A stretch of DNA of 64,000 bases from a bacterium (GCA_030649205.1 JAUSGE010000014.1:28717-92716), one strand, 5' to 3'. Positions 37,464-64,000 are shown, counted from the first letter of the stretch. Numbers and translations: made by a program. The notes: generated from the sequence alone by a model not told the origin.

Positions 37464-37724
37464 ATGCGGCATTTAAGAAGAATGTTTTTAGCCTATTTCC
37501 GGACAGAGTACGTAAAAAAACAGATTTTATCAAGAAAAGGCGAGTGCGGGCATCACGGTTGCTGCGGCGACTCGCCGTGGTCATGGTTTTTTACCAGAAA
37601 ATGCCTTAAGGGAAAAGATTGTTTAAAATGGAGTAATTTGCCATATTATTGCAAATTATATCCGATAGATGAAAAAGATAAAGCGCCTAAAACAAAAAAA
37701 TATTGTAATTTTTATTGGGATTGA
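37464..37724 (+). CDS. small Cys/His-rich hypothetical protein (86 aa, 8 Cys)
   Basis: Fills an otherwise unexplained 270 bp gap in a tightly packed operon; stop 4 nt before the next start; CGHHGCCGD...C-x5-C...C...C pattern; no homolog recognised. Confidence 0.4.
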   Translation: MRHLRRMFLAYFRTEYVKKQILSRKGECGHHGCCGDSPWSWFFTRKCLKGKDCLKWSNLPYYCKLYPIDEKDKAPKTKKYCNFYWD

Positions 37725-37728
37725 TTAT

Positions 37729-40660: not shown

Positions 40661-40662
40661 AA

Positions 40663-41916: not shown

Positions 41917-42016
41917 ATTGGCTGTTTATTTTTTTAATTATTCACTCTATAGTTGACTCAATTTTTTTATTAATATAATATTATTATATAGTAATATAAG
42001 CCAATGTCAAATAATC

Positions 42017-42595
42017 ATGAATTTAACTGCCAACAAATTAAATTCGCCGCAATACGACAAATTTTTGCTTAAATCAGCGGGCGAAGATGTTTTTATCAGC
42101 GCGCAAGTTGAAATCAGACGGCCGGCTATGGTTTCTATCGGCAGCCATGTCGCCATAGACAGCGGCCTTTATTTGACCACGCGAGCCGAGATCGGCGATT
42201 ATATTCATATCGGCCCGGGCGTCCATATCATCGGCGGCCCTAAAGGATTCATAAAAATGGGACATTTTACGAATATCGCTTTGGGCGGTAAAATTTTATG
42301 CGCCTCTGATGAATTTTCAGGAAACAGTTTGATTACCGCGCCGGGCATACCGGCGAAATATACCAAAGTAATAATTAGGCCGGTGATTTTTGAACGATTT
42401 GCCAATATTTGCGCCAACGCTGTTATTTTGCCCGGGGTTACTTTAGGCGAGGGTTCAGTGGTTGGGGCCTGCTCTTTAGTGACAAAGGATACTGAGCCTT
42501 GGACAATTAATACTGGCGTTCCGGCTCGCCCCGTTAAAATAAGAAAAAAAGGCAAGATGCTTGAATACGCTAAAAAATTAGGCTACTTTAATTAA
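42017..42595 (+). CDS. hexapeptide-repeat (left-handed beta-helix) sugar acetyltransferase
   Basis: IGSHVAIDSGLYL / IGPGVHIIGG / ICANAVILPGVTLGEGSVVGACSLV hexapeptide repeats. Confidence 0.75.
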   Translation: MNLTANKLNSPQYDKFLLKSAGEDVFISAQVEIRRPAMVSIGSHVAIDSGLYLTTRAEIGDYIHIGPGVHIIGGPKGFIKMGHFTNIALGGKILCASDEFSGNSLITAPGIPAKYTKVIIRPVIFERFANICANAVILPGVTLGEGSVVGACSLVTKDTEPWTINTGVPARPVKIRKKGKMLEYAKKLGYFN

Positions 42596-48971: not shown

Positions 48972-50927
48972 ATGTTAAAAATATACCTAGCTGATCTCGT
49001 GTACGATACTATCAAAACAAACTACACGGTTCCTCTTAATATTGCCTATATCGCGGCATTGCTTGAAAAAAGATTCAGCAAACAAGTCAAGATTATTCTT
49101 TTTAAGTATCCAAAGGAACTTGAAAAAGCCATATCTAAGGATCCTCCGGACATTATCGGGCTTAGCCATTATAGTTGGAATTCTAGGCTTAGCCTTCTTT
49201 TTGTTAATATGGTTAAAAGGTTGAACCCAAAGGTAATAACAGTAATGGGCGGACCAAATATAAGAACTGAACCATCTGGCATAAAGGCGTTCTTGAAAGC
49301 AAACCCGAATCTTGATTACTACATTATGTTTGAGGGGGAAGAGTCTTTTGCGGACTTGGTAGGAGGCATCCTCAACGGAAAAGTAAGACCAACCCCAAAT
49401 AGTTGCGCGACAATTATTGGCGGAAAACTGATTTATTCTCCCGTTGATTTTATCAAGAAACCAAAAGAGATTGACCTGCCAAGCCCATATCTTACAGGCT
49501 GGCTTAACAAATTTCTTAAGGACCCGAATATGATCCCCTTGCTTGAAACAAACAGAGGTTGCCCGTTTGGTTGTTTATATTGCGCCTGGGGAGTTACTAC
49601 ATTGTCAAAGGTAAGATTGAGGGATCTAAGCGTGATCAAAAAAGAGATCGAATATGTTGCTGAAAATTCCGCGGGTCAGGTAAAATGGATTTTTTGCGAC
49701 GCTAACTTTGGATTATTTGATCGTGATGTTGAAATTGCCAAGATTATAAGAAATGTCATGGACAAAAAAGGATTTCCAGTATTATTGGATCTTTACCATT
49801 CTAAAAATACGAGTGAAAGAAATATTGAGATAGCCAAGATAATAAAAACCCAATCGGGATATATTGCAATCCAGTCTTCTGACCCCTGCGTTCTTAAGTG
49901 TTGCGGCAGAGGCGGTATTAACATGGATCATATAAAAGCTCAGATTAAGTATTATAAAGATAATAACATGGAAGTTGGCACGGACATTCTTATCGGGCTT
50001 CCCGGAGAAAGCGTAAAAAACCACCTGACTTCCTTAAAGGACTCATTTGATATCGGATTTGATGATATTCGCCCGTATAATATCCGGCTTTTGCCTGGGT
50101 CAAAATATGAAGACGATACGCGCAGAAAGGAATATGCAATAAAGACAAAATTCAGGCCAATTTTTGGCGCATATGGCATCTATGATGAAAAGATTGTTTT
50201 TGAGATTGAGGAATCGGTCAGAGCTACAAAAGACATGTCCGAAAAAGAGCTTAACAATTTTAAGATTCATCATTGGCTGATCTATTTTGCCTGGAATGTA
50301 GGAATGTTTAAACCCATTCTCAAATTTGCTCAAAAAAGAGGCGCCAACCCCGGAGAAGTATTGGATAAACTCGCACATTCCAAGGATCCATCGATAAAGA
50401 GAATATTTGATTATATGAAGAATAAATCAATGGAAGAATGGTTTAATACAAAAGAGGATATGATCAAATTCTATAAGAGCCGGAGGAACTACGATAAACT
50501 CGTAAACGAATTTGTAAAACTAAACTTTTTGTACATCGCGCTGGTTTATAAAGATGCCGGTATATTAACATCAATCCAAAATGAACTAGTCAGAATCCTA
50601 AGAGAAGAATACCGTATTGGAGGTATATTATTTGACAAAACGCTAGACTTGACAGAAAAATTGGCCTGCAAGGACTTATTGCAAGGGGATACCAGTAAGA
50701 GAGTGAAATATCCCGGAGAGGTTGTCTCTTTAATAATAAATAATCCCGAGCTTTTAAAAAAACAAAGTGTTGAAGTTGAGATTTACAGGCCTAAGAAGTA
50801 TGATTCTTTATGCCGGTTTTATTTAATGCCTAATGGCAAAAAGGACATTTCTTTAAAAAATTTCACAAGGTTTTTGGAGAATGACGGAATGTTTACATTG
50901 AGGAACAAGATTAGATTGGTTAGTTAG
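48972..50927 (+). CDS. B12-binding-domain radical SAM protein with ~200 aa C-terminal extension (651 aa)
   Basis: MGGPNIRTEP region; TNRGCPFGCLYCAWG (Cx3Cx2C); longer than the ~450-480 aa paralogs. Confidence 0.8.
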   Translation: MLKIYLADLVYDTIKTNYTVPLNIAYIAALLEKRFSKQVKIILFKYPKELEKAISKDPPDIIGLSHYSWNSRLSLLFVNMVKRLNPKVITVMGGPNIRTEPSGIKAFLKANPNLDYYIMFEGEESFADLVGGILNGKVRPTPNSCATIIGGKLIYSPVDFIKKPKEIDLPSPYLTGWLNKFLKDPNMIPLLETNRGCPFGCLYCAWGVTTLSKVRLRDLSVIKKEIEYVAENSAGQVKWIFCDANFGLFDRDVEIAKIIRNVMDKKGFPVLLDLYHSKNTSERNIEIAKIIKTQSGYIAIQSSDPCVLKCCGRGGINMDHIKAQIKYYKDNNMEVGTDILIGLPGESVKNHLTSLKDSFDIGFDDIRPYNIRLLPGSKYEDDTRRKEYAIKTKFRPIFGAYGIYDEKIVFEIEESVRATKDMSEKELNNFKIHHWLIYFAWNVGMFKPILKFAQKRGANPGEVLDKLAHSKDPSIKRIFDYMKNKSMEEWFNTKEDMIKFYKSRRNYDKLVNEFVKLNFLYIALVYKDAGILTSIQNELVRILREEYRIGGILFDKTLDLTEKLACKDLLQGDTSKRVKYPGEVVSLIINNPELLKKQSVEVEIYRPKKYDSLCRFYLMPNGKKDISLKNFTRFLENDGMFTLRNKIRLVS

Positions 50928-52419: not shown

Positions 52420-52502
52420 TTTTTATGGAGTTATTATTAAATTAACGGTATATTGAAATAATAGCACTATTCTAAAAAGTGTCAATAACCTAATGACCCC
52501 TG

Positions 52503-52531
52503 TTGACACCTTTTGACATATACGGTAAAAT
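52503..52531 (+). promoter_or_regulatory. near-consensus sigma70-type promoter (TTGACA-17 nt-TAAAAT) with an overlapping palindrome GTGTCAA...TTGACAC
   Basis: ttgaca at 52503-52508, taaaat at 52526-52531; the ATG at 52540 follows ~8 nt later (leaderless-type). Inverted repeat gtgtcaa (52479-52485) / ttgacac (52503-52509). Confidence 0.55.
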
Positions 52532-52539
52532 GGTCATAT

Positions 52540-52788
52540 ATGGCTCAAGAAATAAAATCCAACGAAGTTTATACTACGGCCGAAACGCAGCAATTGCTGA
52601 AAATAAGCTCCAGTACGATTAAGCGCATGCTTAAAAAAAAGCTGATTAGAGCCAATAAGGTTGGCGGGCAGTATCGTATTTTAGGCAAGGAAATTTTGCG
52701 CTTGGTTTCTCCGGAGGTTGAAAAACAAGCGATTAAATCGTATTTAAAATTGAAGCAAAAAGTTGTGGATAAAATAAATAAATGGTAA
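52540..52788 (+). CDS. small helix-turn-helix DNA-binding protein (excisionase/MerR-like HTH_17 type)
   Basis: YTTAETQQLLKISSSTIKRMLKKKLIRANKVGGQYRI is the classic excisionase-family HTH; start set at the ATG downstream of the promoter rather than 52513. Confidence 0.6.
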   Translation: MAQEIKSNEVYTTAETQQLLKISSSTIKRMLKKKLIRANKVGGQYRILGKEILRLVSPEVEKQAIKSYLKLKQKVVDKINKW

Positions 52789-52806
52789 TTTTTATTAGTA
52801 TCATTT

Positions 52807-54594
52807 ATGATTTTGCCAAATAATAAATTAGTAAATTTTTCAAAAATTTTTTATAAAGCCTATTGGGGATATAAAAAGCAGATTTTAGCGTTAACGGCGC
52901 TTGGTTTTTTAAGCAGTTTGCTTGAGGGCATAGGCATTAATGTCGCCATTCCTATTTTTTCTTTTCTTTCAGGCACTAATAGCCAGGCCAATGATTTTAT
53001 TTCCGAAATAATTAAAAAATCTTTTGGCTTTTTTAGCATAAATTACAGTTTGAAATATCTGTTTATTTTTGTTTGCGGCTTGCTTATCTTCCGGGTTTTG
53101 GTTTTGCTCTTGTCTAATTACATTAAAATAAAAATTGCCGCCGTCTATGAAGAAAAAACCAGAGGCGAATTATTTAAGCTTACCGCTGAAGCTAATTGGC
53201 AATATTTATTAAAACAAAAATTAGGCCACTTGGAAACTATCTTGGTAACCAACGTTAGATATGGCAGCGTGCTCTTGCAATATATCAGCGACTGCTTGAT
53301 GATGGCGACGAGCTTGCTGGTTTTTCTTCTGGTGGCGATTAATATTTCCTGGCTAGTCACTTTAATTACCGTAGCGCTGGGCGGATTGATATTTTTCGCC
53401 TTTAAGCCGTTTTTACATAAAACCAGAACTTTGTCGCGGGAAAACGAAAAAATTAACCGCCAGACGTCTCACCATATCAATGAAAATATTTTAGGCATGA
53501 AAACCATAAAAGTAATGTCGGCCGGCGATAAGATAGTTGATAAGGCCAAGGAATATTTTAAAACTTTAAGGGAGTTGATTGTTAAAACTTCATTTTTAAG
53601 CATAGCGACCAACGCATTGATTCAGCCAATCGGCCTGATTTTTGTTTTTATTATTTTTGCCATTTCCTATAAAACCGGCATATTTAATTTCGCCGCCCTG
53701 GCCGCTATAATTTACTTGATCCAAAGAATATTCACTTACGGCCAGCAGCTGCAGACGACTTTTTACGTCATGACCAATTCCGCCTCTTACGTTGATAAAA
53801 TGCTTGAATATCGGGATGAGATAATAAAAAATAAAGAAATTGACAGCGGCACGGACAGCTTTAAATTTGATAATTTTTTAGAATTTAAAAATGTTAGTTT
53901 TTATTATGACCAGGCTAAACAGATATTGAATGAAGTCAATTTTACCGTTAACAAGGGGGAGATGATCGGCTTAATCGGCCCGTCCGGAGCCGGTAAAACT
54001 ACGATCGTTGATATAATTTTGCGCCTGTTTAATCCGGTCAAAGGCGAAATTTTATTAGACGGTAAAAATATAAATAAGATTGATATTAATGAATGGCGTA
54101 AAAATATCGGCTATGTTTCCCAAGATATTTTTCTTAAAAACGATACTATCGCCAATAATATAAAATTTTATAATGACGCGATTTCCGATAAAGAAATGGA
54201 AGTCGCGGCTAAAATGTCCAATATTTATGATTTTATACAGAGTTGCCCGGATAAATTTGCCAGCGTTATCGGAGAAAGGGGAATTTTATTATCGGCCGGG
54301 CAAAGACAGAGAATCGTTATCGCCAGAATTTTAGCCAGGCGTCCGGAAATTTTAATTTTGGATGAGGCCACCAGCGCTTTAGATAATGAGTCCGAAGTGC
54401 AGATTCAAAAGGTTATAGAAAATTTAAAAAATAAAGTAACGGTTTTATTAATCGCCCATCGCTTATCTACGGTAATGAATTGCACCAAGCTGTTAGTCCT
54501 GCAAGACGGAGAAATCAAAGAGCAGGGTTCGCCGGAAGAATTATTAGCGGATGAAAAATCTTATTTTTATAAAGTGAATAACATTAGAAAATAA
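52807..54594 (+). CDS. ABC transporter, fused permease-ATPase exporter (type I exporter, MsbA-like)
   Basis: Six N-terminal TM helices; Walker A GPSGAGKTT; signature LSAGQRQRIVIAR; Walker B ILILDEATSALD; H-loop IAHRLST. Confidence 0.9.
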   Translation: MILPNNKLVNFSKIFYKAYWGYKKQILALTALGFLSSLLEGIGINVAIPIFSFLSGTNSQANDFISEIIKKSFGFFSINYSLKYLFIFVCGLLIFRVLVLLLSNYIKIKIAAVYEEKTRGELFKLTAEANWQYLLKQKLGHLETILVTNVRYGSVLLQYISDCLMMATSLLVFLLVAINISWLVTLITVALGGLIFFAFKPFLHKTRTLSRENEKINRQTSHHINENILGMKTIKVMSAGDKIVDKAKEYFKTLRELIVKTSFLSIATNALIQPIGLIFVFIIFAISYKTGIFNFAALAAIIYLIQRIFTYGQQLQTTFYVMTNSASYVDKMLEYRDEIIKNKEIDSGTDSFKFDNFLEFKNVSFYYDQAKQILNEVNFTVNKGEMIGLIGPSGAGKTTIVDIILRLFNPVKGEILLDGKNINKIDINEWRKNIGYVSQDIFLKNDTIANNIKFYNDAISDKEMEVAAKMSNIYDFIQSCPDKFASVIGERGILLSAGQRQRIVIARILARRPEILILDEATSALDNESEVQIQKVIENLKNKVTVLLIAHRLSTVMNCTKLLVLQDGEIKEQGSPEELLADEKSYFYKVNNIRK

Positions 54595-54608
54595 TTATTT
54601 TTTATATT

Positions 54609-56042
54609 ATGTTTAGCAAAAAAAATAAAATTTTATTCATAATTCACGATGTCTATCAAGAAGATAATCAATTGCCTCTGGGGTCGGCTTATTTAGCGGC
54701 AGCTTTAAATCAAAATGGAGCTTCCATTGAGGCTTACTGTATGGATGTTTTTCATTATACTAATAAAGAATTGGCCAAGCATTTAGAGGAAAACGAATAC
54801 GATTTAATCGGTTTGGGATTTTTGGCGGCCAGGTTTAATGAAACTGTTGTTGATTTGTGTAAAACCGTGAACGCCCATAAAAAAACCGCTTGGTTTATAT
54901 TAGGCGGGCAAGGGCCTTCCCCGATCCCCGAATATATTTTAAGAACGACCGGGGCCGATATAGTGGCGATCGGCGAAGCTGAAAATACCATCGTTGATTT
55001 GTTAAATTGTAAAATTAACAATGGCGATTTATCCCAGGTGAAAGGCATTGCTTATTTAAACAATGGCGAATTCCAATACACCGGACAGAACAAACTAATT
55101 ATCAAATTAGACGAAATTCCTTTTCCGCTTTGGGAGATATTTCCCATGCATAAATACACAAGCTGTTTCAATTTATTTAATCAGTTGCCCGAGGAAAAAA
55201 GTTTTTTGATTGCCACCAGCCGTGGTTGCACAAATCGCTGTAATTTTTGCTATCGCATGGAAAAAGGGATAAGGTTAAGAAGTATTGATAATATTATTGC
55301 GGAAATAAAGATTTTATTTTCACGATATGGCGTTAATTGCCATGCTTTTATCGACGATTTATTTGTTTTTAGCAAACAGCGTCTGCGGGAATTTGAACAA
55401 GCCCTGGCTCAGTCCGGGTTAAAAATAAAATTTAATTGTAATGCGCGAGTAGATATTATTGATAAAGAAATGGTAGAAATATTAAAAAGATGCGGTTGCC
55501 AATTTATTAATTTTGGCTTTGAATCATCCAGCAATGAAGTGCTTAAATTGATGCATAAAAATGCTACCGCCGAACAAAATATCAGAGCCTTGGAACTTGT
55601 TAAAGCAGACGGCGGCATCGGCATGGGTCTTAATTTTCTTTGGAATAATTTAGGCGACAATGAGGCGACTTTAAGGAAAAATGTTGAACTTATAAAAAAA
55701 TATAATACTTATTATCAATTGCGCACTATCCGGCCCGTAACTCCTTACCCCGGTTCTGACTTATATTATCAATTAATCAAGATGGGAAAACTAAAGGGGC
55801 CGGATGATTTTTTTAAAAAATTTAAGAATTCGGATTTAATGCTGGTAAATTTAATGGATATTCCGGATCATAAAGTTTACGAATTATTGCTGGAAGTAAA
55901 TTCTGATTTAATTTTAGACCATTATTCGCATACGGATGGCGATAGGGAAGAGGCGAAGCGTTTGATTCAGCAATTTTCAGATTTATATGCCGGCAAAACC
56001 GTTAAATTCCGCGGCGCCAGGCATTATGTAAAGAAAAATTAA
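54609..56042 (+). CDS. B12-binding domain radical SAM protein (class B)
   Basis: ATSRGCTNRCNFCYR (Cx3Cx2C); N-terminal B12-like domain. Confidence 0.85.
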   Translation: MFSKKNKILFIIHDVYQEDNQLPLGSAYLAAALNQNGASIEAYCMDVFHYTNKELAKHLEENEYDLIGLGFLAARFNETVVDLCKTVNAHKKTAWFILGGQGPSPIPEYILRTTGADIVAIGEAENTIVDLLNCKINNGDLSQVKGIAYLNNGEFQYTGQNKLIIKLDEIPFPLWEIFPMHKYTSCFNLFNQLPEEKSFLIATSRGCTNRCNFCYRMEKGIRLRSIDNIIAEIKILFSRYGVNCHAFIDDLFVFSKQRLREFEQALAQSGLKIKFNCNARVDIIDKEMVEILKRCGCQFINFGFESSSNEVLKLMHKNATAEQNIRALELVKADGGIGMGLNFLWNNLGDNEATLRKNVELIKKYNTYYQLRTIRPVTPYPGSDLYYQLIKMGKLKGPDDFFKKFKNSDLMLVNLMDIPDHKVYELLLEVNSDLILDHYSHTDGDREEAKRLIQQFSDLYAGKTVKFRGARHYVKKN

Positions 56043-56153
56043 TTAAAAATCTATTTGTTAAAATAATGAAAAATATCAGATGGCAAAAGCAAGCCGGCGA
56101 GTGGAAAATGAAATATCAAGCCGTTTAAAGTTAATAAATTAAGTTAATAAAAT

Positions 56154-56879
56154 ATGGGGAATGTTTGTCTTATTCCGGCCAGAAGCGGTTCAAAAAGAAT
56201 TCCTAAAAAAAATATTAAATTATTAAACGGCAAGCCTTTAATTGCTTATGCAATCAGTGCCGCCTTAAAATCAAAATTAGTTGACAGGGTTATTGTTTCA
56301 ACCGACAGCGAAGAAATTGCCGAAATCGCTAAACATTATAAGGCAGAGGTGCCTTTTATAAGGCCAGCGGAATTAGCTCAAGATGATACGCCGACATTAC
56401 CCGTTTTACAGCATGCAGTAACATATTTAGAAAAAAATGAAAAGTATAAAGCGGATTTAATAATTGTGCTTCAACCAACCGCTCCCTTGGCGCTAGCCGA
56501 AGATATAGATGATGCGATAACAAAAATAACACAGATGAAAACAAATTCCTGCGTCAGTACATGTGAAATCAGCGAAAGGCCGGAATGGATGTATGTTTTT
56601 AATAATGACGAATTAAAACCGTTTCTAGACAAAATACCTCAAGAAAAACGTTTTCGGCGCAGTCAAACTTTGTCTAAAATTTTCAGATTAAATGGTGCGG
56701 TGTGCGTTGTCAGGGGAAATACCTTAATGAAACATAATAAAATAATAGACGAAAATAGTTTATCGGCGATAATTATGCCGCAGGAACGCTCCGTTGACAT
56801 AGATAAATTAATAGACTTTAAGTTAGCGGAATTCTTGTTAAAAGAATTTTATGGAAAGAACAATCAAAATAGAAAATAA
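56154..56879 (+). CDS. acylneuraminate (nonulosonic acid) cytidylyltransferase, NeuA/LegF/PseF-like
   Basis: CLIPARSGSKRIPKKNIKLLNGKPLIAYAI is the CTP_transf_3 signature of CMP-sialic-acid-type synthetases. Confidence 0.8.
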   Translation: MGNVCLIPARSGSKRIPKKNIKLLNGKPLIAYAISAALKSKLVDRVIVSTDSEEIAEIAKHYKAEVPFIRPAELAQDDTPTLPVLQHAVTYLEKNEKYKADLIIVLQPTAPLALAEDIDDAITKITQMKTNSCVSTCEISERPEWMYVFNNDELKPFLDKIPQEKRFRRSQTLSKIFRLNGAVCVVRGNTLMKHNKIIDENSLSAIIMPQERSVDIDKLIDFKLAEFLLKEFYGKNNQNRK

Positions 56880-57963
56880 GTTATCCGGCCTTGAGCAACC
56901 GGTATTTATTATTGCCGAAGCCGGGGTTAATCATAATGGCCGTTTAGCTTTGGCGCTTAAACTGGTTGACGTGGCCGCTGACGCCGGAGCTGATGCCGTA
57001 AAATTTCAAACTTTTCGCGCGGAACAAGTTACCATAGCTTCTGGAAAAATGGCGGAGTATCAGAAAAGAAATCTCGGTAAAACAGAAAGTCAACTAGCGA
57101 TGCTTAAGAGACTGGAATTAAAAGAAAAATATTACCCAGCGCTTATTAAAAGAGCCAAGGAGCGAAAAATTATTTTTCTTTCATCGCCACACGGCGGTTT
57201 TGAATCAGTTGATTTTTTAAAGAAACTGAAAATTTCGGCATTTAAATTCGGTTCAGGGGATTTAACTAATTTGCCATTATTGGGATATGCGGCCAAATTT
57301 AAAAAACCAATGATCATTAGTACCGGTATGGGTAATTTACAGGAGATAAAAGAGGCGGTAGCGGCTATTAAAAAGGCCGGTAATAATAAGATTGCGATTT
57401 TACATTGTACCACAAATTATCCAACCGCCTTGAATAAGGTTAATTTATTGGCGATGAAAACAATAGAAAAAGAGTTTGGTTTGCCGGTAGGTTATTCCGA
57501 TCATACTATAGGCATAAAAGTTTCCGTAGCGGCTGTGGCTTTAGGCGCGCGGATCATTGAAAAACATTTTACTTTAGATAAAACTCTTACGGGGCCAGAC
57601 CACAAAGCTTCTTTGGATCCAGCAGAGTTAAAAGAATTAATTAAACAGATAAGAATAACGGAAAAAAGATTAGCCAGCGGCGAAAACTCAAAAAATTTAA
57701 TAAAAGAATTGAATGTTCAAAAAGCGCTGGGCGACGGCATTAAAAAACCAGTTTCCAGTGAATTAATAGCGGCGAAAATTGGCAGGAAAAGCCTAGTGGC
57801 GAGGTTCAATATTCCTAAAGAAACTAAAATTACCGGCGAAATGTTAGATATAAAAAGGCCGGGAACCGGGATTGAGCCTAAATATTTTAAAATGGTTATT
57901 GGTAAAATAGCCAGCAAAGATATAGCCAGAGATGCTTTAATTACATTTAAAGATTTAAAATGA
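56851..57963 (+). CDS. N-acetylneuraminate-type synthase (NeuB/LegI/PseI family) with C-terminal SAF domain
   Basis: PVFIIAEAGVNHNGRLALALKLVDVAADAGADAVKFQTF is the near-canonical NeuB N-terminus; HCTTNYP...SDHT; antifreeze-like SAF C-terminal domain. Confidence 0.85.
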   Translation: MERTIKIENKLSGLEQPVFIIAEAGVNHNGRLALALKLVDVAADAGADAVKFQTFRAEQVTIASGKMAEYQKRNLGKTESQLAMLKRLELKEKYYPALIKRAKERKIIFLSSPHGGFESVDFLKKLKISAFKFGSGDLTNLPLLGYAAKFKKPMIISTGMGNLQEIKEAVAAIKKAGNNKIAILHCTTNYPTALNKVNLLAMKTIEKEFGLPVGYSDHTIGIKVSVAAVALGARIIEKHFTLDKTLTGPDHKASLDPAELKELIKQIRITEKRLASGENSKNLIKELNVQKALGDGIKKPVSSELIAAKIGRKSLVARFNIPKETKITGEMLDIKRPGTGIEPKYFKMVIGKIASKDIARDALITFKDLK

Positions 57964-58928
57964 AAATTAAAGATGAAAAAATGAAATATATAAAAGAGAA
58001 AGTTTTAGTGACTGGCGCCGCCGGTTTCGTCGGCTCCCATCTTTGCGAGGCATTAATTAACGACGGATATGAAGTTATCGCGTTAGTCCATAATAAAAAA
58101 GAAATTGGCCGGCTGAAGAATGTCCAGAGATTAAGAGCAATCAAAGGAGATATAGAAAATTTTATTGAAATTTTTAAAATTTTAAAAAAGAATAAGCCAT
58201 CAGGTGTATTTCATCTAGCCGCCATTCAACCATCCAAGCTAAATAATGATCCAGCTGCTTTTTTTGAAGCAAATGTCGGAGGAACTTTTAATATTTTGGA
58301 TGCCAGCCGTCGTCTAAATATTAAGAAAATAATTTACAGTTCCTCAATGAGTGTTTACGGGAGCGTTTATGAAAGAAAAATAAATAATCTTCCGGTAGGA
58401 GAGGATTGCCCGACAGATCCTTATGACTTTTATAGTTTAACCAAGCTAATGGGCGAGGAATTTTGCCGATTTTATGCCAGACAATTTAATTTAAATATTA
58501 TTGTTTTAAGATATTCGGGTATTTTTGGCCCAAGAAAAAAGGGCGGGGCAGTAACCGGTTTTATTAAAAATGCTTTTGCTGGCCAGCCTATAAAAATTTT
58601 AAATAATATAAATTGGGACATTATTCATGTTAAAGACGTTGTAAAGGCTAATATGGCAGCTTTTAAAAAATCGGCTCAAATGCGATTTGAAATAATAAAC
58701 ATCGGAAGCGGCCAAGAGATAAATATAAAAGAGTTGGCTAAAAGTATTTTAGAAATTAGCGGGTCAAAGTCAAAAATTGAATTGGATAAAAATTTATTTT
58801 TATCAAAACCATTGCGTTTTTATTATAATATTACCAAAGCTAAAAAATTGTTGAAATTCAAGCCGATGTCGGCGAAACAAGGCGTGCGGCAATATATTAA
58901 GGAAATTAATAATAATTTTAAAAAATGA
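57960..58928 (+). CDS. NAD-dependent epimerase/dehydratase (SDR)
   Basis: VTGAAGFVGSHLCEAL; YSLTKLMGE (YxxxK). Confidence 0.75.
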   Translation: MKIKDEKMKYIKEKVLVTGAAGFVGSHLCEALINDGYEVIALVHNKKEIGRLKNVQRLRAIKGDIENFIEIFKILKKNKPSGVFHLAAIQPSKLNNDPAAFFEANVGGTFNILDASRRLNIKKIIYSSSMSVYGSVYERKINNLPVGEDCPTDPYDFYSLTKLMGEEFCRFYARQFNLNIIVLRYSGIFGPRKKGGAVTGFIKNAFAGQPIKILNNINWDIIHVKDVVKANMAAFKKSAQMRFEIINIGSGQEINIKELAKSILEISGSKSKIELDKNLFLSKPLRFYYNITKAKKLLKFKPMSAKQGVRQYIKEINNNFKK

Positions 58929-59623
58929 TTTTATCCGGGCATCAGCCAGAGTATCTGCCTTATCTTGGGTTTATTCATAAGATCGCCAAAGCCGGCCAAT
59001 TTATTTTAGTCGACCATGTTCAATATCTTGAAAAAAGTTTTCAAAACAGCAATAGAATCAGAACGGCTCCGGGTCAGGAGGGCTTTACCTGGCTGATAGT
59101 GCCGGTTAAGAGCCATGGCAGAAGATATCAGAAAATAAATGAAGTGGAAATAGATAACTCCGTCGCTTGGGGGAAAAAGCATTGGAAAACTATTTATTTA
59201 AATTATAAGAAAGCCCCCTTTTTTGATAATTACCAAGAATTTTTTGAAAAATTATATTTAAAAAAATGGGACAAGCTAGTTGATTTAAATGAAACAATCA
59301 TTTATTATTTAGTGGAAAAGCTGGGCGTTAAAACGCCGATTGTCAGAAGCTCCGATTATGATTTTAAAGAGAAAAAAAATGATTTGCTGATAGAAATGTG
59401 TAAAAAATTAAAAGCTGGCGCCTATTTGTCCGGCCAGGGAGCAAAATGCTACGTTGATGAAGAAAAGTTTAAAAAAAATGGTTTAAATCATATATTTTCC
59501 GATTTTAAACATCCGACTTATCTCCAAAGATTTAAGCCTTTTGCAGCCAATCTTTCCGTGATTGATTTATTATTCAATTGCGGCCCGGAAAGTTTAAATA
59601 TAATTCTAAATAATAAACACTAA
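58925..59623 (+). CDS. WbqC-like family protein
   Basis: N-terminal ILSGHQPEYLPYLGFIHKIAKA matches the conserved WbqC-like (PF08889) start; 232 aa. Confidence 0.6.
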   Translation: MILSGHQPEYLPYLGFIHKIAKAGQFILVDHVQYLEKSFQNSNRIRTAPGQEGFTWLIVPVKSHGRRYQKINEVEIDNSVAWGKKHWKTIYLNYKKAPFFDNYQEFFEKLYLKKWDKLVDLNETIIYYLVEKLGVKTPIVRSSDYDFKEKKNDLLIEMCKKLKAGAYLSGQGAKCYVDEEKFKKNGLNHIFSDFKHPTYLQRFKPFAANLSVIDLLFNCGPESLNIILNNKH

Positions 59624-59624
59624 T

Positions 59625-60725
59625 ATGATTCCTTTAGCTAGGCCGACTTTACCAAAGTTTAGTTCCATTGAAAAAAAATTAAAGGGAATTTTTAAAAGCG
59701 GCATGCTCACTGACTCAAAGTATGTTGGTGAATTTGAACAGAGATGCGCTGATTTTTTAGGGGTGGAAAATGTCGCGGCCGTGTCTAGCGGAACGGCGGC
59801 GCTAACTTTAATATTAAAATGTCTGAAGTTAAAAGGCGAAGTTATTCTGCCGAGTTTTACTTTTACTTCCGGAGTTAATGCTTTATTTTGGTGTGGTTTG
59901 ACCCCGGTTTTCGCGGATATTAACCCTAAAACTTTTAATATTGATCCGGCCTCAATTCAAAAAAAAATAACTAAAAAAACCGCGGCTATTTTGGCGACGC
60001 ATGTTTTTGGCAATCCATGCGAGATAGAAAAAATTGAGAAAATCGCTAAAAAAAATAATTTAAAAGTTATTTATGACGCCGCCCATGCTTTCGGGTCAAC
60101 CTACAAAGGGAAATCGGTATTTTGTTTTGGCGACGCTTCTATTGTTAGCTTTACTCCAACTAAAGTAATTACTACGGCCGAGGGCGGATTAGCGGTGGTA
60201 AAAGATAAAAATTTTTCCAGAATTTTAAAATTAGGCAGGAATAATGGCGACAGTTTCAACAGGGCGGAAGAGTTTTTGGGAATTACCGCCAGAATGAACG
60301 AATTTAGCGCTATTTTAGGAATTGAAGGATTGAAAATATTTAATATAAATTTAAAAAGAAGGCTAAGAATAATAAATTTATATAAAAAAGAATTGGCCCA
60401 GGTTAACGGCGTATCTTTACAAAAACTAGAGCATGATTCCTTCTCGGTATATAAAGATTTTACTATTTTGGTGGATGAAAAAAAATTCGGCATGTCCAGA
60501 GATGATTTATTACAGAAGTTATTAAAGGATAAAATTCAGACCAAAACATATTTTTATCCCCCGCTTCACCAAAAGATAACCTGTTCAAAATTGCGTAAAT
60601 CACTTTTGCCAGAGACTGAGAACATCAGTTCGCGCATTATGAGTCTGCCGCTTTATTCCCATATGCCGGAAAAATACGTTCAGCAAGTTTGCACGTTGAT
60701 TAAAAAATCTTATGTCAAAAAATAA
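59625..60725 (+). CDS. DegT/DnrJ/EryC1-family sugar aminotransferase
   Basis: VSSGTAALTLILKCL...SFTPTKVITTAEGG. Confidence 0.8.
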   Translation: MIPLARPTLPKFSSIEKKLKGIFKSGMLTDSKYVGEFEQRCADFLGVENVAAVSSGTAALTLILKCLKLKGEVILPSFTFTSGVNALFWCGLTPVFADINPKTFNIDPASIQKKITKKTAAILATHVFGNPCEIEKIEKIAKKNNLKVIYDAAHAFGSTYKGKSVFCFGDASIVSFTPTKVITTAEGGLAVVKDKNFSRILKLGRNNGDSFNRAEEFLGITARMNEFSAILGIEGLKIFNINLKRRLRIINLYKKELAQVNGVSLQKLEHDSFSVYKDFTILVDEKKFGMSRDDLLQKLLKDKIQTKTYFYPPLHQKITCSKLRKSLLPETENISSRIMSLPLYSHMPEKYVQQVCTLIKKSYVKK

Positions 60726-61890
60726 ACCAAAAAAAATAATGAAAGTAGCGGTTGTAACCGGCACCAGGGCGGAATACGGAATTTTAAAGCCATTATTAAA
60801 AAAAATTAAAAATTTTTCTGGTTTTAAATTAGAGTTAATGATTACGGGTATACATTTATTAAAGCGATATGGTCTGACGATCGGAGAAATTAAAAAAGAT
60901 GGTTTTAAAACGGATGAGAGAGTTGTTATGTATGAAAAAAACGAGGAAGCAAGTTGTTACTACGGAGAGGCATTGGGAAAGGGAATAAAAAATTTTACGA
61001 AGATGTTTTTAAAAATTAAGCCCGATCTTTTAATAGTGCTCGGCGATCGACTGGAGCCTTTGGCTGCGACCCTGTCTGCGGCGAATTTAATAATTCCCAT
61101 CATCCATATTCATGGCGGAGAAAAAACCAACAGCGGCTGTATTGATGAAAGTATCAGGCACGCCATCACCAGATTTGCTCATATTCATCTGGTATCAACA
61201 GAACAGAGTAAACAAAGGCTCATAAAAATGGGCGAAGAGCCGTGGCGGATATTCAGGGTGGGCGCGCTGGGACAAGAAAGCTTTTTGAATTCCCCTAAGA
61301 TAAAGAGGGAGGTTCTTTTTGGTAAATTTCGGCTGGACAGCAAGCAGAAGCTTATTCTTTGCCTGTTTAATCCGGTTATTTTTGAAGCGGATAAAATGGG
61401 AAGGCATATGCGGGAAATATTGAAAGCGCTTGAAGAGTTAAAAATTCAAAGCATTATTATTTATCCGAACAACGACATTGGCGGCAAGGATATCATAAAA
61501 GAAATAGATAAGCACAAGAATTCGCCGTTTATAAAAATTTACCCCAACCTGAACCATGAAGATTATGTTAGTTTATTAAAACAGGCCAATGTTTTAATAG
61601 GAAATTCCAGTTCCGGCATCATTGAGGCGCCATCTATTAAATTACCAGTGGTGAATATCGGTTTAAGAAATACCGGGCGGGAGCACGCGGAGAATATTAT
61701 ATTCGCGGATCCGGCTAAAAATGATATTATAGAGGCGATTAAAAAAACGCTTTATGACAAAAAATTCAGGAAAAAATTGAAGACATGCAAAAATCCTTAC
61801 GGAGATACAAAAACAGTTGAAAAAATTATTAATATTTTAAATAAAATAAAAATTAATAAAAAGCTGCTTACCAAGTATCTTACTTATTGA
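60712..61890 (+). CDS. UDP-N-acetylglucosamine 2-epimerase, hydrolysing type (NeuC/LegG-like); alternative start ATG 60739
   Basis: MKVAVVTGTRAEYGILKPLL...DRLEPLAATLSAANLIIPIIHIHGGEKT are canonical NeuC motifs. Confidence 0.8.
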   Translation: MSKNKPKKIMKVAVVTGTRAEYGILKPLLKKIKNFSGFKLELMITGIHLLKRYGLTIGEIKKDGFKTDERVVMYEKNEEASCYYGEALGKGIKNFTKMFLKIKPDLLIVLGDRLEPLAATLSAANLIIPIIHIHGGEKTNSGCIDESIRHAITRFAHIHLVSTEQSKQRLIKMGEEPWRIFRVGALGQESFLNSPKIKREVLFGKFRLDSKQKLILCLFNPVIFEADKMGRHMREILKALEELKIQSIIIYPNNDIGGKDIIKEIDKHKNSPFIKIYPNLNHEDYVSLLKQANVLIGNSSSGIIEAPSIKLPVVNIGLRNTGREHAENIIFADPAKNDIIEAIKKTLYDKKFRKKLKTCKNPYGDTKTVEKIINILNKIKINKKLLTKYLTY

Positions 61891-63326
61891 TAAATTTTAT
61901 GAATGATTGTATACTAGCTTATCCAATTCCGACGGCTGATAGTCCGGTTAAAGGTTCGGCTCTTTCTATTTTTTATCCGGGAGCTATGCTGGAACAAAAC
62001 GGCCTTAAGGTTGAGTATTTCGACGAACGATTTGACAAGTTTGATGACCTTCTGTTTTTATTAAAGGAAAATCCGGTTTGCGTCGGCGTGTCTTCAATGA
62101 CTGGTTATCAATTGATTAGAAGCAAGCGAATATTGGAAACGGTGAAGAAAGTAAATCCGAACATTTATACGATCTTCGGCGGCGCCCATCCTTCATTGCT
62201 TCCCGCGCAGTGCATTAAAGAAGATTTTGTGGATTTTGTGGTTGTTGGAGAAGGCGAAAAAACACTGCTGGAATTGGTAATGGCTTTAAAGAACGGAGGC
62301 AATTTAAGCAAAGTGGACGGTATTTTTTGGAAAAACAAAGGAAAAATTATCGCTAATAAGCATAGAGAGTTCATGGATCCCACGGAGTGGCCGTTCCCCC
62401 TGACCCCAAAAAATAGAAAATATTTTAAGATCGCCGCTAACAGGGGGGAGCTGATGTTCCCGGCAAGTCGAGGTTGTCCGTATAATTGCAATTTTTGTTA
62501 TAATCAAACATTTAACCGCCGCAGTTGGCGGCCGATGCCGCTTGATAAATTTGAAAAAGAGTTGGGGATTTTTTTGCGGGAATTCAAAATTAAAAACGCG
62601 TATATAAACGACGACAATATTGGTTCAAATAAGGCCAGAATAAAGAAAATAGCCGAAATTATAAAAAGATTCGGAATCACCTGGAGCACGAGTATAAGAT
62701 GCAGCGATATGGACGAAGAAACCGCGAGAGTGTTTGAGGAAAGCGGCTGCCACGAGCTGCTCCTGGGCGTTGAATCCGGCTCGGACAGAGTTCTTAACGA
62801 AGTGGTCAACAAAATGTATCCTAAAGGCAGTGAAGATATCCGCAACTGCGCCAGAATTTTAAGTAAGACAAAGATCCGCGGGAGATATAACTTTATAGCA
62901 GGCCTGCCCAGCGAAACAGCGGAAGAAACACATAAAAGCATGGATTTAGCCGATTGGATCTGGCGAACCGATCAGAACGCTAAAATTGCTTTTGCCGCCT
63001 TTTCTCCTTACCCCGGCAGCAAACTTTATCAAGAAGCGCTGAAAGCCGGTTTTAAAGAGCCCCAGGATTTTTCAGGTTGGAGCAAAATGTCCTTAAGCAA
63101 TGAAGTCAATCCCATAGCCAGTAATCTTTATTATATAGCTGGATTGAAATTCAGGGAGAAAAAAGGGGATTCAACCAATAGAAATTTTTCCGGGTTGAAA
63201 AGATTGATAATTTATCCTTTTGAAATTTCAGCGCGGCTTCGCTGGAAATACAGATTTTTAAAATATTACGAATTAGAAAAATTCATAATAAAGATGTTGT
63301 TTATTTGGGCTAGTAAAAGAACTTGA
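61887..63326 (+). CDS. B12-binding domain radical SAM protein (class B)
   Basis: GGAHPSLLP; ASRGCPYNCNFCYNQ (Cx3Cx2C). Confidence 0.85.
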   Translation: MINFMNDCILAYPIPTADSPVKGSALSIFYPGAMLEQNGLKVEYFDERFDKFDDLLFLLKENPVCVGVSSMTGYQLIRSKRILETVKKVNPNIYTIFGGAHPSLLPAQCIKEDFVDFVVVGEGEKTLLELVMALKNGGNLSKVDGIFWKNKGKIIANKHREFMDPTEWPFPLTPKNRKYFKIAANRGELMFPASRGCPYNCNFCYNQTFNRRSWRPMPLDKFEKELGIFLREFKIKNAYINDDNIGSNKARIKKIAEIIKRFGITWSTSIRCSDMDEETARVFEESGCHELLLGVESGSDRVLNEVVNKMYPKGSEDIRNCARILSKTKIRGRYNFIAGLPSETAEETHKSMDLADWIWRTDQNAKIAFAAFSPYPGSKLYQEALKAGFKEPQDFSGWSKMSLSNEVNPIASNLYYIAGLKFREKKGDSTNRNFSGLKRLIIYPFEISARLRWKYRFLKYYELEKFIIKMLFIWASKRT

Positions 63327-63383
63327 TCAAAAGCACATAATTTTAAATTAATTTATTATGGTTATAAAAATTAGTATGGAAGT

Positions 63384-63412
63384 TTGAAAATTGGCGAAAA
63401 AATTGTTAGAAT
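63384..63412 (+). promoter_or_regulatory. near-consensus sigma70-type promoter (TTGAAA-17 nt-TAGAAT) upstream of the terminal radical SAM gene
   Basis: ttgaaa 63384-63389, 17 nt spacer, tagaat 63407-63412; AT-rich 150 bp intergenic region. Confidence 0.45.
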
Positions 63413-63476
63413 ATTAAATAGAGTAAAAATAGATAAAAAATTATTACAAAAAAGATAATTTATTATAATAAAATTT

Positions 63477-64000
63477 ATGAAAAAAGAGTTTAAAGGCATT
63501 TCTTTAAGAAAACATGAGTTGGAAGAATTTATGGGAAATTTTAAGGACATGCCGGATAGGTTATTAAAATATTGTGAAATATTATTAGAGGGCAAGGACG
63601 CCTCTCCTTATTGTTTCCAAGATACTATGTCATTTAGACATATAGGCGTTGGTCTTACTTCCAAATGCAACAAGCACTGTGTTTGGTGCTATCGGTTTGA
63701 TCCGATGTATAAAAATGTTTTAAATAAAGAACTTCCTTTTGAAAAATTGGAAAAAATAGTTAATAACACTAAAGGAAAATTCAGGATGGTAAAATTGGGC
63801 GGGCTAGGAGAGCCGATTCTTTATCCTCGTCTTTTGGATGCGATTGCATTAGTGAGAAAATTGTCGGATAGAGTTAGAATTACCAGTAACGCCAGTTTAT
63901 TGAACAAAAATTTAATTAATAAAATGATTGAGAGCGGATTAACTGATATAGAAGTCAGTATTCTCACATTTGACGAAAAAGAAGAGATGAAATTAAGAGG
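63477..64000 (+). CDS. radical SAM protein, 3'-partial (no N-terminal B12 domain; Cys cluster near the N-terminus)
   Basis: ATG at 63477, frame open to the window end. GVGLTSKCNKHCVWCYRFD (Cx3Cx2C) ~60 aa from the start, G-rich SAM motif GGLGEPILYP. Not in the supplied ORF track because it is truncated. Confidence 0.7.
   Translation, partial: MKKEFKGISLRKHELEEFMGNFKDMPDRLLKYCEILLEGKDASPYCFQDTMSFRHIGVGLTSKCNKHCVWCYRFDPMYKNVLNKELPFEKLEKIVNNTKGKFRMVKLGGLGEPILYPRLLDAIALVRKLSDRVRITSNASLLNKNLINKMIESGLTDIEVSILTFDEKEEMKLR

Follow-up and report, generated by a model that had tools for sequence, protein, structure and literature searches.

A putative CMP-nonulosonic acid pathway of the legionaminic type, with WbqC, PIG-L, and B12 radical SAM partners, in a bacterial glycan island

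We analyzed a stretch of 64,000 nucleotides from a bacterium (GCA_030649205.1, JAUSGE010000014.1:28717-92716; this whole stretch is called the window below), in which six genes at positions 56154 to 61890 (the interval) encode homologues of enzymes that make nonulosonic acids activated with cytidine monophosphate (CMP). Genes are named by their lower coordinate in the window (Table 1), and loci used for comparison carry handles such as L138. The core of the operon containing the six genes probably directs the synthesis of a legionaminic-type 5,7-diamino nonulosonic acid in CMP-activated form, and it is accompanied by a tailoring set, a KpsC/KpsS-like transferase, and export by an ATP-binding cassette (ABC) protein; we put the probability of this reading at roughly 0.7. 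The pathway and the transferase class are of known kinds, and the association with them of WbqC, PIG-L, and a B12-binding radical S-adenosylmethionine (SAM) enzyme was not found in the literature searched. These accessory enzymes, which recur in other loci, point to an undescribed modification of the sugar.

The core enzymes resemble those of legionaminic acid synthesis

All six plus-strand open reading frames (ORFs) listed for the interval in an earlier note on this DNA were present, with family matches far above chance. The note had read them as a CMP-nonulosonic acid pathway of a legionaminic or neuraminic rather than a pseudaminic type, and our comparisons with NCBIfam models and with proteins in the PDB supported this assignment. 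The 2-epimerase 60712 scored 429 bits on the NeuC model TIGR03568 (cutoff, 236), and its best PDB match was the hydrolyzing 2-epimerase of Acinetobacter baumannii that acts on GDP/UDP-N,N'-diacetylbacillosamine (diNAcBac), with 225 bits, compared with 181 bits for human GNE. The synthase 56851 reached 438 bits on TIGR03569 (NeuB_NnaB; cutoff, 400) versus 281 bits on the PseI model, which is under the cutoff of 340. Its PDB matches were ranked as Bacillus subtilis SpsE (213 bits), a pseudaminic acid synthase (171 bits), and Neisseria meningitidis NeuB (157 bits); legionaminic acid synthesis in B. subtilis depends on SpsE (PMC7439481). A neighbor-joining tree was built from the 47 NeuB domains of all fetched loci and labeled by genomic context. 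In this tree, the synthase grouped in a clade whose members nearly all have a NeuC neighbor (the exceptions were in L102 and L116), and synthases with a PseB neighbor formed separate groups. By sequence, the epimerase thus falls in the LegG/NeuC class and the synthase in the Leg/Neu clade expected of a CMP-legionaminic acid pathway.

The two other core enzymes were placed less narrowly. The cytidylyltransferase 56154 belongs, at class level only, to the CMP-sugar synthetases: it scored 192 bits on the PseF model (under the cutoff of 205.7) and at most 60 bits on the KdsB models, and its nearest solved relatives were NeuA/CMP-N-acetylneuraminic acid (CMP-Neu5Ac) synthetases, at about 105 bits. 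The DegT aminotransferase 59625 had DesI as its best NCBIfam match (282 bits, under the cutoff), a score of 195 bits on LegC against a cutoff of 420, and 2po3 as its best PDB match (199 bits). These gene identities and the type assignment, like the conserved neighborhoods described below, are what the analysis itself showed. A 5,7-diamino sugar of the legionaminic type is favored because of the relatives of the NeuC- and NeuB-type proteins, the context-labeled tree, and the adjacent aminotransferase.

The interval is not complete for such a pathway, and in this respect the earlier proposal did not stand: neither a 4,6-dehydratase nor an N-acetyltransferase was found among its genes. Genes past the window end were read from an identical locus on a public Logan contig (L002), which contains the radical SAM gene 63477 in full and where a PIG-L deacetylase, a 136-amino-acid (aa) hexapeptide-repeat (LbH) acyltransferase, a 351-aa PseB-like short-chain dehydrogenase/reductase (SDR), and a 477-aa PF05159 paralogue follow. 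The likely 4,6-dehydratase and N-acetyltransferase and the PIG-L deacetylase thus lie 2 to 4 kb past the window end. The PseB-like SDR, about 3 kb past it, scored 302 bits on the PseB model (cutoff, 408), has the motif ISTDKA, and is linked to the module by position only. The LbH protein scored 61 bits on the NeuD/PglB/VioB model (cutoff, 161) and has orthologues in L003, L118, L124, and L138. These two proteins are likely, judging from their position and homology, to supply the missing steps.

In other loci, the parts stand closer together. NeuB and NeuC are found together with LbH, DegT, and a PseB-like SDR in L118, L124, and L003, and L083, L003, and L004 represent further organisms with contiguous pathway parts. 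The gene order in L138 is NeuB-NeuC-rSAM-WbqC-PIG-L-LbH-DegT-SDR (rSAM, radical SAM), and that in L140 is LegB-type SDR-DegT-PglD-nucleotidyltransferase-MT-NeuB-WbqC-rSAM-NeuC-PIG-L-rSAM/SPASM-cytidylyltransferase.

WbqC and PIG-L recur together with a B12 radical SAM enzyme

Two B12 radical SAM genes, 54609 and 61887, bracket the module, and the earlier note had seen in this the possibility that the nonulosonic acid itself is modified by radical SAM enzymes. We rejected the bracketing as evidence. Eight B12 radical SAM paralogues lie in the window, and a further radical SAM gene, the ninth and of another type, starts at 63477; to have one such gene on each side of the module is therefore uninformative. 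Five of the eight lie upstream, among glycosyltransferases at 13 to 28 kb, and four of these five have the CxxxCxxC motif. In each of the proteins 48972, 54609, and 61887, a radical SAM domain with CxxxCxxC comes after the B12-binding domain; methyl transfer to a pathway intermediate is a possible activity of such enzymes.

We therefore turned to gene neighborhoods. For 61887, seven contexts with DNA were available, this window included; NeuB was found within 10 kb in 6/7, WbqC in 6/7, and PIG-L in 6/7. The relative in L138 (70% identity) lies between NeuC and WbqC-PIG-L, that in L140 (49%) between WbqC and NeuC, that in L024 (Saccharibacteria; 242 bits) between NeuB and WbqC-PIG-L, and that in L026 (Patescibacteria; 503 bits) between the cytidylyltransferase and WbqC-PIG-L. 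In L139 (49% identity), it is found about 5 to 8 kb from a cytidylyltransferase-ABC-NeuB-NeuC set. In L141 (8936-12994; 46% identity), the order is 2-epimerase-rSAM-PIG-L-WbqC, in a cluster rich in family 4 glycosyltransferases (GT4) with a Wzm/Wzt transporter and with neither NeuB nor a cytidylyltransferase in view; nonulosonic acid loci are therefore not the only setting of the cassette. At 40% identity, an eighth relative is near WbqC in a heptose-like cluster without NeuB. In addition, radical SAM/SPASM genes recur in L138, L140, L004, and L015. We conclude that the 61887 enzyme, WbqC, and PIG-L are a recurrent functional set, often with a 2-epimerase and a SPASM-type radical SAM protein, and that this set is frequently but not exclusively attached to nonulosonic acid pathways.

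The other two genes near the module gave less. Only weak counterparts of 54609 (58 to 140 bits) were found in related loci. Homologues of 48972 (313 to 324 bits) adjoin nonulosonic acid genes in L004 and L138; the protein scored 150 bits on the NCBIfam KedN5 family, under the cutoff, and is possibly an accessory enzyme. It is possible, if doubtful, that none of the B12 radical SAM genes acts on the nonulosonic acid, that they methylate other sugars or lipids of the island, and that their adjacency merely reflects their density. The five paralogues far upstream, the poor conservation of 54609, and the relatives of 61887 in the heptose-like cluster and in L141 would fit such an explanation, whereas the closer relatives of 61887 lie inside the nonulosonic acid operons of several lineages (L138, L140, L024, and L026). 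The idea of a radical SAM-modified sugar thus lost its original argument and gained a better one from 61887. No link between nonulosonic acids and radical SAM enzymes was found in the literature searched.

As the earlier note had noticed, a WbqC gene lies inside the module (58925); its product is a full-length member of PF08889. Its AlphaFold2 (AF2) model had a pLDDT of 91.7, and a Foldseek search against the PDB gave nothing at E <= 0.001. The best Foldseek probabilities (tyrosyl-tRNA synthetase, 0.75; a cytidylyltransferase, 0.63; universal stress protein, 0.54), with TM-scores of 0.2 to 0.33, are hints only. A profile search of PDB sequences returned nothing at E <= 1, and 36 family members compared with Pfam at E <= 10 matched PF08889 alone. 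In the literature searched, WbqC members had incidental mentions only, with no function given for any of them, and a search on O121 glycyl-sugar genetics turned up only WbqG/WbpS. A description of WbqC in nonulosonic acid operons with PIG-L and a B12 radical SAM gene was not found there either, nor among the top-ranked matches of broader searches.

We then examined WbqC neighborhoods in 80 genome loci from many phyla, with views of 10 kb on each side. PIG-L was present in 51 of them (directly adjacent to WbqC in 31), DegT in 42, and NeuB in 18, the last belonging to both NeuC-linked and PseB-linked kinds. A sugar aminotransferase stood beside WbqC in every context inspected. An Omnitrophota locus has the order DegT-rSAM/SPASM-GT4-WbqC ... 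PIG-L, a Parcubacteria locus has WbqC within a bacillosamine-like cluster, and plasmids of Rhizobium and Azospirillum have it in amino-sugar clusters. On plasmid pBWB401 of Bacillus mycoides KBAB4 (L142, 8116-10374), the order is DegT-SDR-aminotransferase-FemA/FemB-family protein-WbqC-PIG-L; FemA/FemB-family proteins are aminoacyl-tRNA-dependent transferases. A published operon has a ProRS paralogue (ProRSx), GT4, WbqC, LmbE, a dedicated tRNA, and murG, in the order ProRSx-GT4-WbqC-LmbE-tRNA-murG (PMC10404621, figure 2). What these contexts share is an amino sugar together with an amine-exposing deacetylase, and two of them also have aminoacyl-tRNA machinery. The FemA/FemB neighbor and the ProRS-tRNA operon hint, by analogy, that WbqC systems may attach amino acids to sugar amines, and our working hypothesis is that WbqC would form an amide on a sugar amine.

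From these neighborhoods, we tentatively propose a conserved cassette of WbqC, PIG-L, and a B12 radical SAM enzyme, often with a 2-epimerase and a SPASM protein, that may tailor nonulosonic and other amino sugars by swapping an N-acetyl group and adding a C-methyl group. WbqC might then be the founder of an amide-forming family, dependent on ATP or on aminoacyl-tRNA. Its occurrence as such a cassette in Patescibacteria and several other uncultured lineages is proposed with the same caution. If this were true, its products would be derivatives of legionaminic and pseudaminic acids that form an as yet undescribed class.

The SDR of the interval is not a canonical dehydratase

The earlier note had counted SDR dehydratases in the module. 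There is a single SDR in the interval, 57960, and it lacks the acid/base residues of a dehydratase. Its motif is SSSMSVYG, and it and its orthologues in four other loci have SS[M/Y/Q/I]xxY at the catalytic Ser/Thr, without the acidic residues of the dehydratase motif (T-D-E or T-S-E). In contrast, the motif is STSEVYG in the SDR occupying the LegB slot of L140, STSEMFG in the GDP-mannose dehydratase of the window, and ISTDKA in the PseB-class proteins downstream. LegB was the top NCBIfam match of 57960 and was rejected as its identity, with 143 bits against a cutoff of 475 and with the catalytic Glu of the L140 enzyme missing. From its sequence, 57960 is not a canonical 4,6-dehydratase; the roles of epimerase, reductase, or Pal-like partner are candidates. 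In B. subtilis, a PglF/PseB-class enzyme can start a UDP-linked legionaminic acid pathway, and a two-enzyme pair, Pen-Pal, can replace it (PMC7439481). Because Pal (6bwl, 93 bits) is among the solved relatives of 57960 and the Pen-Pal pair substitutes in B. subtilis, a role as a Pal-like helper is possible.

Such an extra SDR also raises the question of which isomer is made. The product might be another 5,7-diamino sugar (8-epi- or 4-epi-legionaminic, acinetaminic, or 9-hydroxylated), with the GalE-like SDR setting the isomer or oxidizing C4 to supply the aminotransferase, with no 6-deoxygenation. The SDR-DegT-WbqC trio is kept in L083, L003, and L004, and L004 and L138 lack a PseB/PglF- or LegB-type dehydratase in the 10-kb views, their SDRs being without the dehydratase dyad. 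However, these views span just 10 kb on each side; a PseB-like SDR with a canonical ISTDKA motif shares the contig with the module here and is present in L083 and L003 as well, and in L140, WbqC, radical SAM, and PIG-L are accompanied by a canonical LegB-type dehydratase, the extra SDR being absent. We regard a different isomer or route as unlikely and retain the legionaminic-type product as the better description.

A KpsC/KpsS-like protein is a candidate transferase

The product of 50920 matched PF05159 above the gathering score (Table 1), which confirmed a family assignment suspected in the earlier note. The match covers residues 300 to 416 of the 499-aa protein. When a profile of 31 homologues was compared with the PDB, KpsC chains only were found (E values of 6e-10 to 7e-8), with YVKEHP of the window protein aligned to YVKVHP of KpsC. 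Within this KEHP motif (residues 346 to 349), K346 and P349 are invariant across the family and H348 is almost invariant, whereas position 347 shows no conservation. In the alignment with KpsC of T. dismutans, PLHLEPE faces PGQVESD, and the invariant Glu313 stands at the aligned Asp. Residue offsets suggest that this Asp of QVESD would be D160 of E. coli KpsC, the catalytic nucleophile. The AF2 model of the protein (pLDDT, 85.8) matched GT-B proteins in Foldseek, with the best TM-scores, 0.52 to 0.60, to KpsC; a GT-B fold with an H-P nucleotide-binding motif is thus predicted. The 499-aa and 477-aa PF05159 paralogues share 30% identity over their C-terminal domains.

Full-length homologues of the 499-aa protein (50 to 67% identity) are abundant and are all annotated as hypothetical; those from organism-named sources point to Patescibacteria lineages. 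We examined PF05159 neighborhoods in 50 metagenome loci, 32 of which were at least 8 kb long. Nonulosonic acid genes, of either the NeuC or the PseB type, were present in 28 of these 32. Among close homologues, 14 of 17 loci had them; of these 17, 8 were of the NeuC type and 5 of the PseB type, and the distance was often just a few hundred bases. In related loci, a PF05159 gene is again found diverging from HTH_17, the ABC exporter gene, and the pathway genes. A precedent is KpsS1, a KpsC/KpsS homologue that, as cited in PMC12887879, is a characterized retaining pseudaminyltransferase of family GT118. The proposal that the 50920 protein is a candidate CMP-nonulosonic acid transferase, which the earlier note had put forward, is thus well supported as a hypothesis.

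The sole solved sequence relatives of this protein are transferases of beta-Kdo (Kdo, 3-deoxy-D-manno-oct-2-ulosonic acid), the similarity is confined to the C-terminal nucleotide-binding domain, and homologues in L085, L089, L091, and L092 have no nonulosonic acid genes in view. It might accordingly be asked whether it transfers Kdo or another ulosonic acid, or is a capsule-linker enzyme like KpsC/KpsS. We find this improbable: no KdsA or KdsB gene is present, the cytidylyltransferase does not exceed 60 bits on the KdsB models, the 28/32 association is often within a few hundred bases, the locus pairs two PF05159 paralogues with two nonulosonic acid modules, and KpsS1 shows that the superfamily includes a pseudaminyltransferase.

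Proposed pathway

We infer the order of the steps, the donor nucleotide, the stereoisomer, and all of the tailoring chemistry as follows. An NDP-GlcNAc 4,6-dehydratase would first give a 4-keto-6-deoxy sugar; the likeliest candidate is the 351-aa PseB/PglF-class SDR past the window, possibly paired with the GalE-like SDR 57960 in the manner of Pen-Pal. The DegT protein 59625 would then install a 4-amino group, which the 136-aa hexapeptide-repeat acyltransferase past the window would acetylate. In the following steps, the NeuC-type enzyme 60712 would remove the nucleotide and epimerize C2, the NeuB-type synthase 56851 would condense the hexose with phosphoenolpyruvate (PEP), and the cytidylyltransferase 56154 would yield the CMP-sugar. 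The tailoring set would comprise WbqC (58925), the B12 enzyme 61887, and, a little further downstream, PIG-L and a SPASM-type radical SAM enzyme. Our best guess is that PIG-L may remove an N-acetyl group, WbqC may load the freed amine with a different acyl or aminoacyl group, and the B12 enzyme may C-methylate the sugar or its substituent. The GT-B protein 50920 would move the sugar from its CMP donor to the glycan, probably by retaining double displacement, and the ABC protein 52807 would export the product.

Several points weigh against this pathway. The SDR inside the module is not a dehydratase and, being an extra GalE-like enzyme, could alter which isomer is formed; the enzymes proposed as dehydratase and acetyltransferase are outside the window and are assigned by position and homology only. 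The cytidylyltransferase is under every equivalog cutoff, and sequence cannot separate legionaminic acid from its stereoisomers (8-epi, 4-epi, and acinetaminic). With eight B12 radical SAM paralogues in the island, some of those near the module may act on other sugars. No relative of known function could be detected for WbqC, its fold hints being nonsignificant matches to nucleotide-binding proteins of the HUP class (Foldseek E > 0.01). A PF05159 homologue was found in 0/80 of the WbqC genome loci, and such a transferase is therefore not universal for these clusters. Finally, the pathway is known here from genes alone, in the host and its relatives alike.

The least probable alternative is that the NeuC, NeuB, and NeuA homologues make CMP-Neu5Ac from UDP-GlcNAc while the SDR, WbqC, and DegT proteins make an unrelated amino sugar of the same glycan: the synthase and epimerase exceed the cutoffs of NCBIfam models that carry the names of Neu5Ac enzymes, the cytidylyltransferase has its best solved relatives among CMP-Neu5Ac synthetases, the interval alone cannot yield a 6-deoxy-4-amino precursor since 57960 is not a dehydratase, and WbqC, DegT, and SDR also co-occur without NeuB, but the epimerase is nearer to the diNAcBac enzyme than to human GNE, the synthase is nearer to SpsE than to N. 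meningitidis NeuB, and orthologous pairs have DegT, an LbH acetyltransferase, and an SDR of the dehydratase class as immediate neighbors in L138, L140, L118, L124, and L003.

Organization of the locus and its host

The six genes are translationally coupled within a single operon, which starts at 52513 and continues past the window end (>64000). Four of the five junctions among them overlap (56851/56879, 57960/57963, 58925/58928, and 60712/60725), the WbqC/DegT junction is a 1-nt gap, and the radical SAM ORF 61887 overlaps the end of the 2-epimerase gene (61887/61890). On the plus strand, the order is HTH_17 (52513), ABC exporter (52807), B12 radical SAM (54609), the six genes, and B12 radical SAM (61887). 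The HTH_17 gene is kept beside the ABC exporter and PF05159 genes in L087, L088, L101, and L110. The ABC protein scored 346 bits on HepA, 312 on MsbA, and 221 on PglK, all under the NCBIfam cutoffs; its orthologues (620 to 750 bits) adjoin PF05159 homologues, and it is a candidate flippase or exporter of the glycoconjugate. The PF05159 gene 50920 had been described in the earlier note as convergent. It is in fact divergent from the operon, across a 93-nt gap, and is convergent with the upstream gene 48972 only. This gap carries the two best promoter-like matches of the region (11/12 positions), facing outward; the total number of such matches in the region was not above the shuffled expectation.

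Table 1. Features of the window discussed in the text, with the families or motifs supporting them
Feature	Position	Strand	Evidence or remark
Five further B12 radical SAM paralogues	13144-14592, 14589-16031, 19645-21000, 24300-25703, 27080-28432	+	114-230 bits to the two near the module
B12-binding radical SAM, 651 aa, KedN5-like C-methyltransferase type	48972..50927	+	Pfam B12-binding, Radical_SAM; CPFGCLYC
KpsC/KpsS-like GT-B glycosyltransferase, 499 aa	50920..52419	-	PF05159, 34.8 bits (gathering score 20)
Small HTH_17 DNA-binding protein, 91 aa	52513..52788	+	Pfam HTH_17; first operon gene
ABC exporter, fused membrane and ATPase domains, HepA/MsbA/PglK-like	52807..54594	+	Pfam ABC_membrane, ABC_tran
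B12-binding radical SAM, 477 aa	54609..56042	+	Pfam; CTNRCNFC motif
CMP-nonulosonic acid synthetase, NeuA/LegF/PseF class	56154..56879	+	CTP_transf_3, 101 bits, E 1e-28
Nonulosonic acid synthase (PEP condensation), NeuB/LegI type	56851..57963	+	NeuB, 309 bits, E 2e-92
GalE-like extended SDR, 322 aa	57960..58928	+	Best PDB matches UDP-hexose 4-epimerases
WbqC family protein, 232 aa	58925..59623	+	PF08889, 247 bits, residues 7-225 vs 1-217 of the 218-position model
Pyridoxal phosphate-dependent sugar 4-aminotransferase, DesI/LegC-like	59625..60725	+	DegT, 329 bits, E 4e-98
Hydrolyzing NDP-sugar 2-epimerase, NeuC/LegG	60712..61890	+	Epimerase_2, 249 bits; gene callers start at 60739
B12-binding radical SAM, 475-479 aa	61887..63326	+	Pfam; CPYNCNFC motif
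Radical SAM gene, MoaA/SPASM-twitch-like, 5' part of 364 aa	63477..64000	+	Pfam Radical_SAM; runs past window

A pseudaminic-type module lies on the same contig, about 6 to 10 kb past the window end (L002, 16270-20845). Its PseB (452 bits; cutoff, 408), PseC (456; 423.5), and pseudaminic-acid-associated methylase (178; 112) all passed the NCBIfam models. A very divergent 593-aa NeuB-cytidylyltransferase fusion (97 bits on the NeuB model) is also found there, followed by a HisH-like glutamine amidotransferase; L138 also carries a similar fusion, of 596 aa. The locus thus has two nonulosonic acid modules and two PF05159 paralogues.

All ORFs scanned in the window belong to glycan synthesis, except one transposase, a NUDIX-domain protein, a tetratricopeptide repeat (TPR) protein, and one without a family match. 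The scans gave glycosyltransferases, five DegT aminotransferases, methyltransferases, and an O-antigen-ligase-like protein; no tRNA genes and no Rfam families were found within the 64 kb, and megablast gave no match for 50000-64000 among plasmids. The G+C content is 0.35 to 0.37 from 50 kb onward and mostly 0.40 to 0.48 upstream, with negative GC skew at 44 to 48 kb. An ISNCY transposase (46506-47801, plus strand; 392 bits, cutoff 250) lies just upstream of the nonulosonic acid segment. Because of the G+C shift and the position of the transposase, the island may be mosaic, its segments having come from different sources.

Other genes of the island are also unusual. At 741-2978 (plus strand), a 745-aa protein combines an O-antigen-ligase (Wzy_C) domain with C-terminal TPR repeats, and it may attach the finished glycan to its carrier. 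A 631-aa ORF without a Pfam or NCBIfam match lies between two DegT genes (37669-39564, plus strand). The trio at 39566-42595 is composed of a LegC-like DegT gene (277 bits), an opposite-strand sugar C-methyltransferase gene (Methyltransf_13/14), and a gene for a 192-aa hexapeptide-repeat transferase; it looks like a separate pathway for a C-methylated amino sugar and recurs near PF05159 homologues in L086 and L087. The ORF at 43814-45487 (plus strand) has an N-terminal part like nucleotide-sugar dehydrogenases, fused in an unusual manner to a class I SAM methyltransferase domain.

The proteins have been deposited as part of a metagenome-assembled genome (MDO8592395.1, MDO8592402.1, and MDO8592405.1), in which they are encoded on a contig of 144 kb. 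The host is an uncultured bacterium, probably of the Patescibacteria, as suggested by the closest taxon-named homologues, which come from Patescibacteria/Parcubacteria lineages. Members of the Patescibacteria live attached to other cells, and their genomes are tiny. Nonulosonic acids cap many bacterial surface glycans and shape recognition by hosts, phages, and partner cells. No description of nonulosonic acid pathways in Patescibacteria was found in the literature searched. Despite the small genomes of its probable group, the host has a glycan island of more than 85 kb, in which two nonulosonic acid modules and at least nine radical SAM genes are found. Glycan islands do not usually have radical SAM genes at such a density, and one may ask where a host expected to have little biosynthetic capacity obtains its cobalamin. 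The candidate nonulosonic acid transferase family is abundant in Patescibacteria-like genomes, and the WbqC-PIG-L-B12 radical SAM set offers genes for a possible new sugar chemistry. WbqC is widespread in O-antigen and capsule loci, and its conserved partners narrow the hypotheses on its function.

Comparison with known systems

CMP-legionaminic acid is made by GDP-linked LegB/C/H/G/I/F in Campylobacter jejuni and by UDP-linked routes in B. subtilis (SpsM/C/D/G/E/F) and A. baumannii. As in these pathways, a 2-epimerase, a NeuB-type synthase, a CMP-synthetase, and a 4-aminotransferase are present, closest to legionaminic acid enzymes. Unlike in known legionaminic acid operons, the dehydratase and acetyltransferase stand apart from the core, and a GalE-like SDR, WbqC, PIG-L, and radical SAM genes are interleaved; the SDR, DegT, and cytidylyltransferase proteins here are also all under the NCBIfam equivalog cutoffs. 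The presence of a PseB/PglF-class SDR and an LbH acyltransferase on the same contig resembles the UDP route of B. subtilis (PMC7439481).

For the accessory enzymes, the nearest parallels are partial. Class B radical SAM methylases of sugars and natural products include the KedN5, PhpK, and HpnR families, and some members of the class are not methylases. The B12 proteins of the window share with them an N-terminal B12-binding domain and a radical SAM core with CxxxCxxC, yet all their NCBIfam matches were far under the cutoffs, with at most 150 bits against 250 to 750. WbqC owes its name to the O121 O-antigen cluster of E. coli. In mycothiol and bacillithiol synthesis, a GT4 enzyme acts first, then a PIG-L/LmbE deacetylase, and an amino acid is then ligated to the freed sugar amine; GT4, PIG-L/LmbE, and WbqC likewise recur together. 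WbqC is unrelated in sequence to MshC/BshC, and amide formation by WbqC is a hypothesis drawn by analogy.

KpsC and KpsS are retaining beta-Kdo transferases of family GT107. The similarity of the 499-aa protein to them extends over about 80 to 125 C-terminal residues, its N-terminal 300 residues having no detectable relative, and its family has HLEPE in place of the QVESD of T. dismutans KpsC. The Pse/Leg-derivative transferases of Tannerella forsythia, Tanf_01245 and TFUB4_00887, which are genetically validated, have a conserved C-terminal domain with an HP motif (PMC5420450). The 499-aa protein matches the C-terminal region of the T. forsythia BFO_1060 NCBIfam family (E 2e-8), with 33.6 bits against a cutoff of 200, and is thus not a member of it. 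With KpsC/KpsS and with KpsS1 of A. baumannii (GT118, Pse5Ac7Ac), the protein shares a GT-B fold, PF05159, a K-x-H-P motif, and coupling to a CMP-ulosonic acid pathway, the likeness to KpsS1 being drawn from its description and that to KpsC from sequence alignment.

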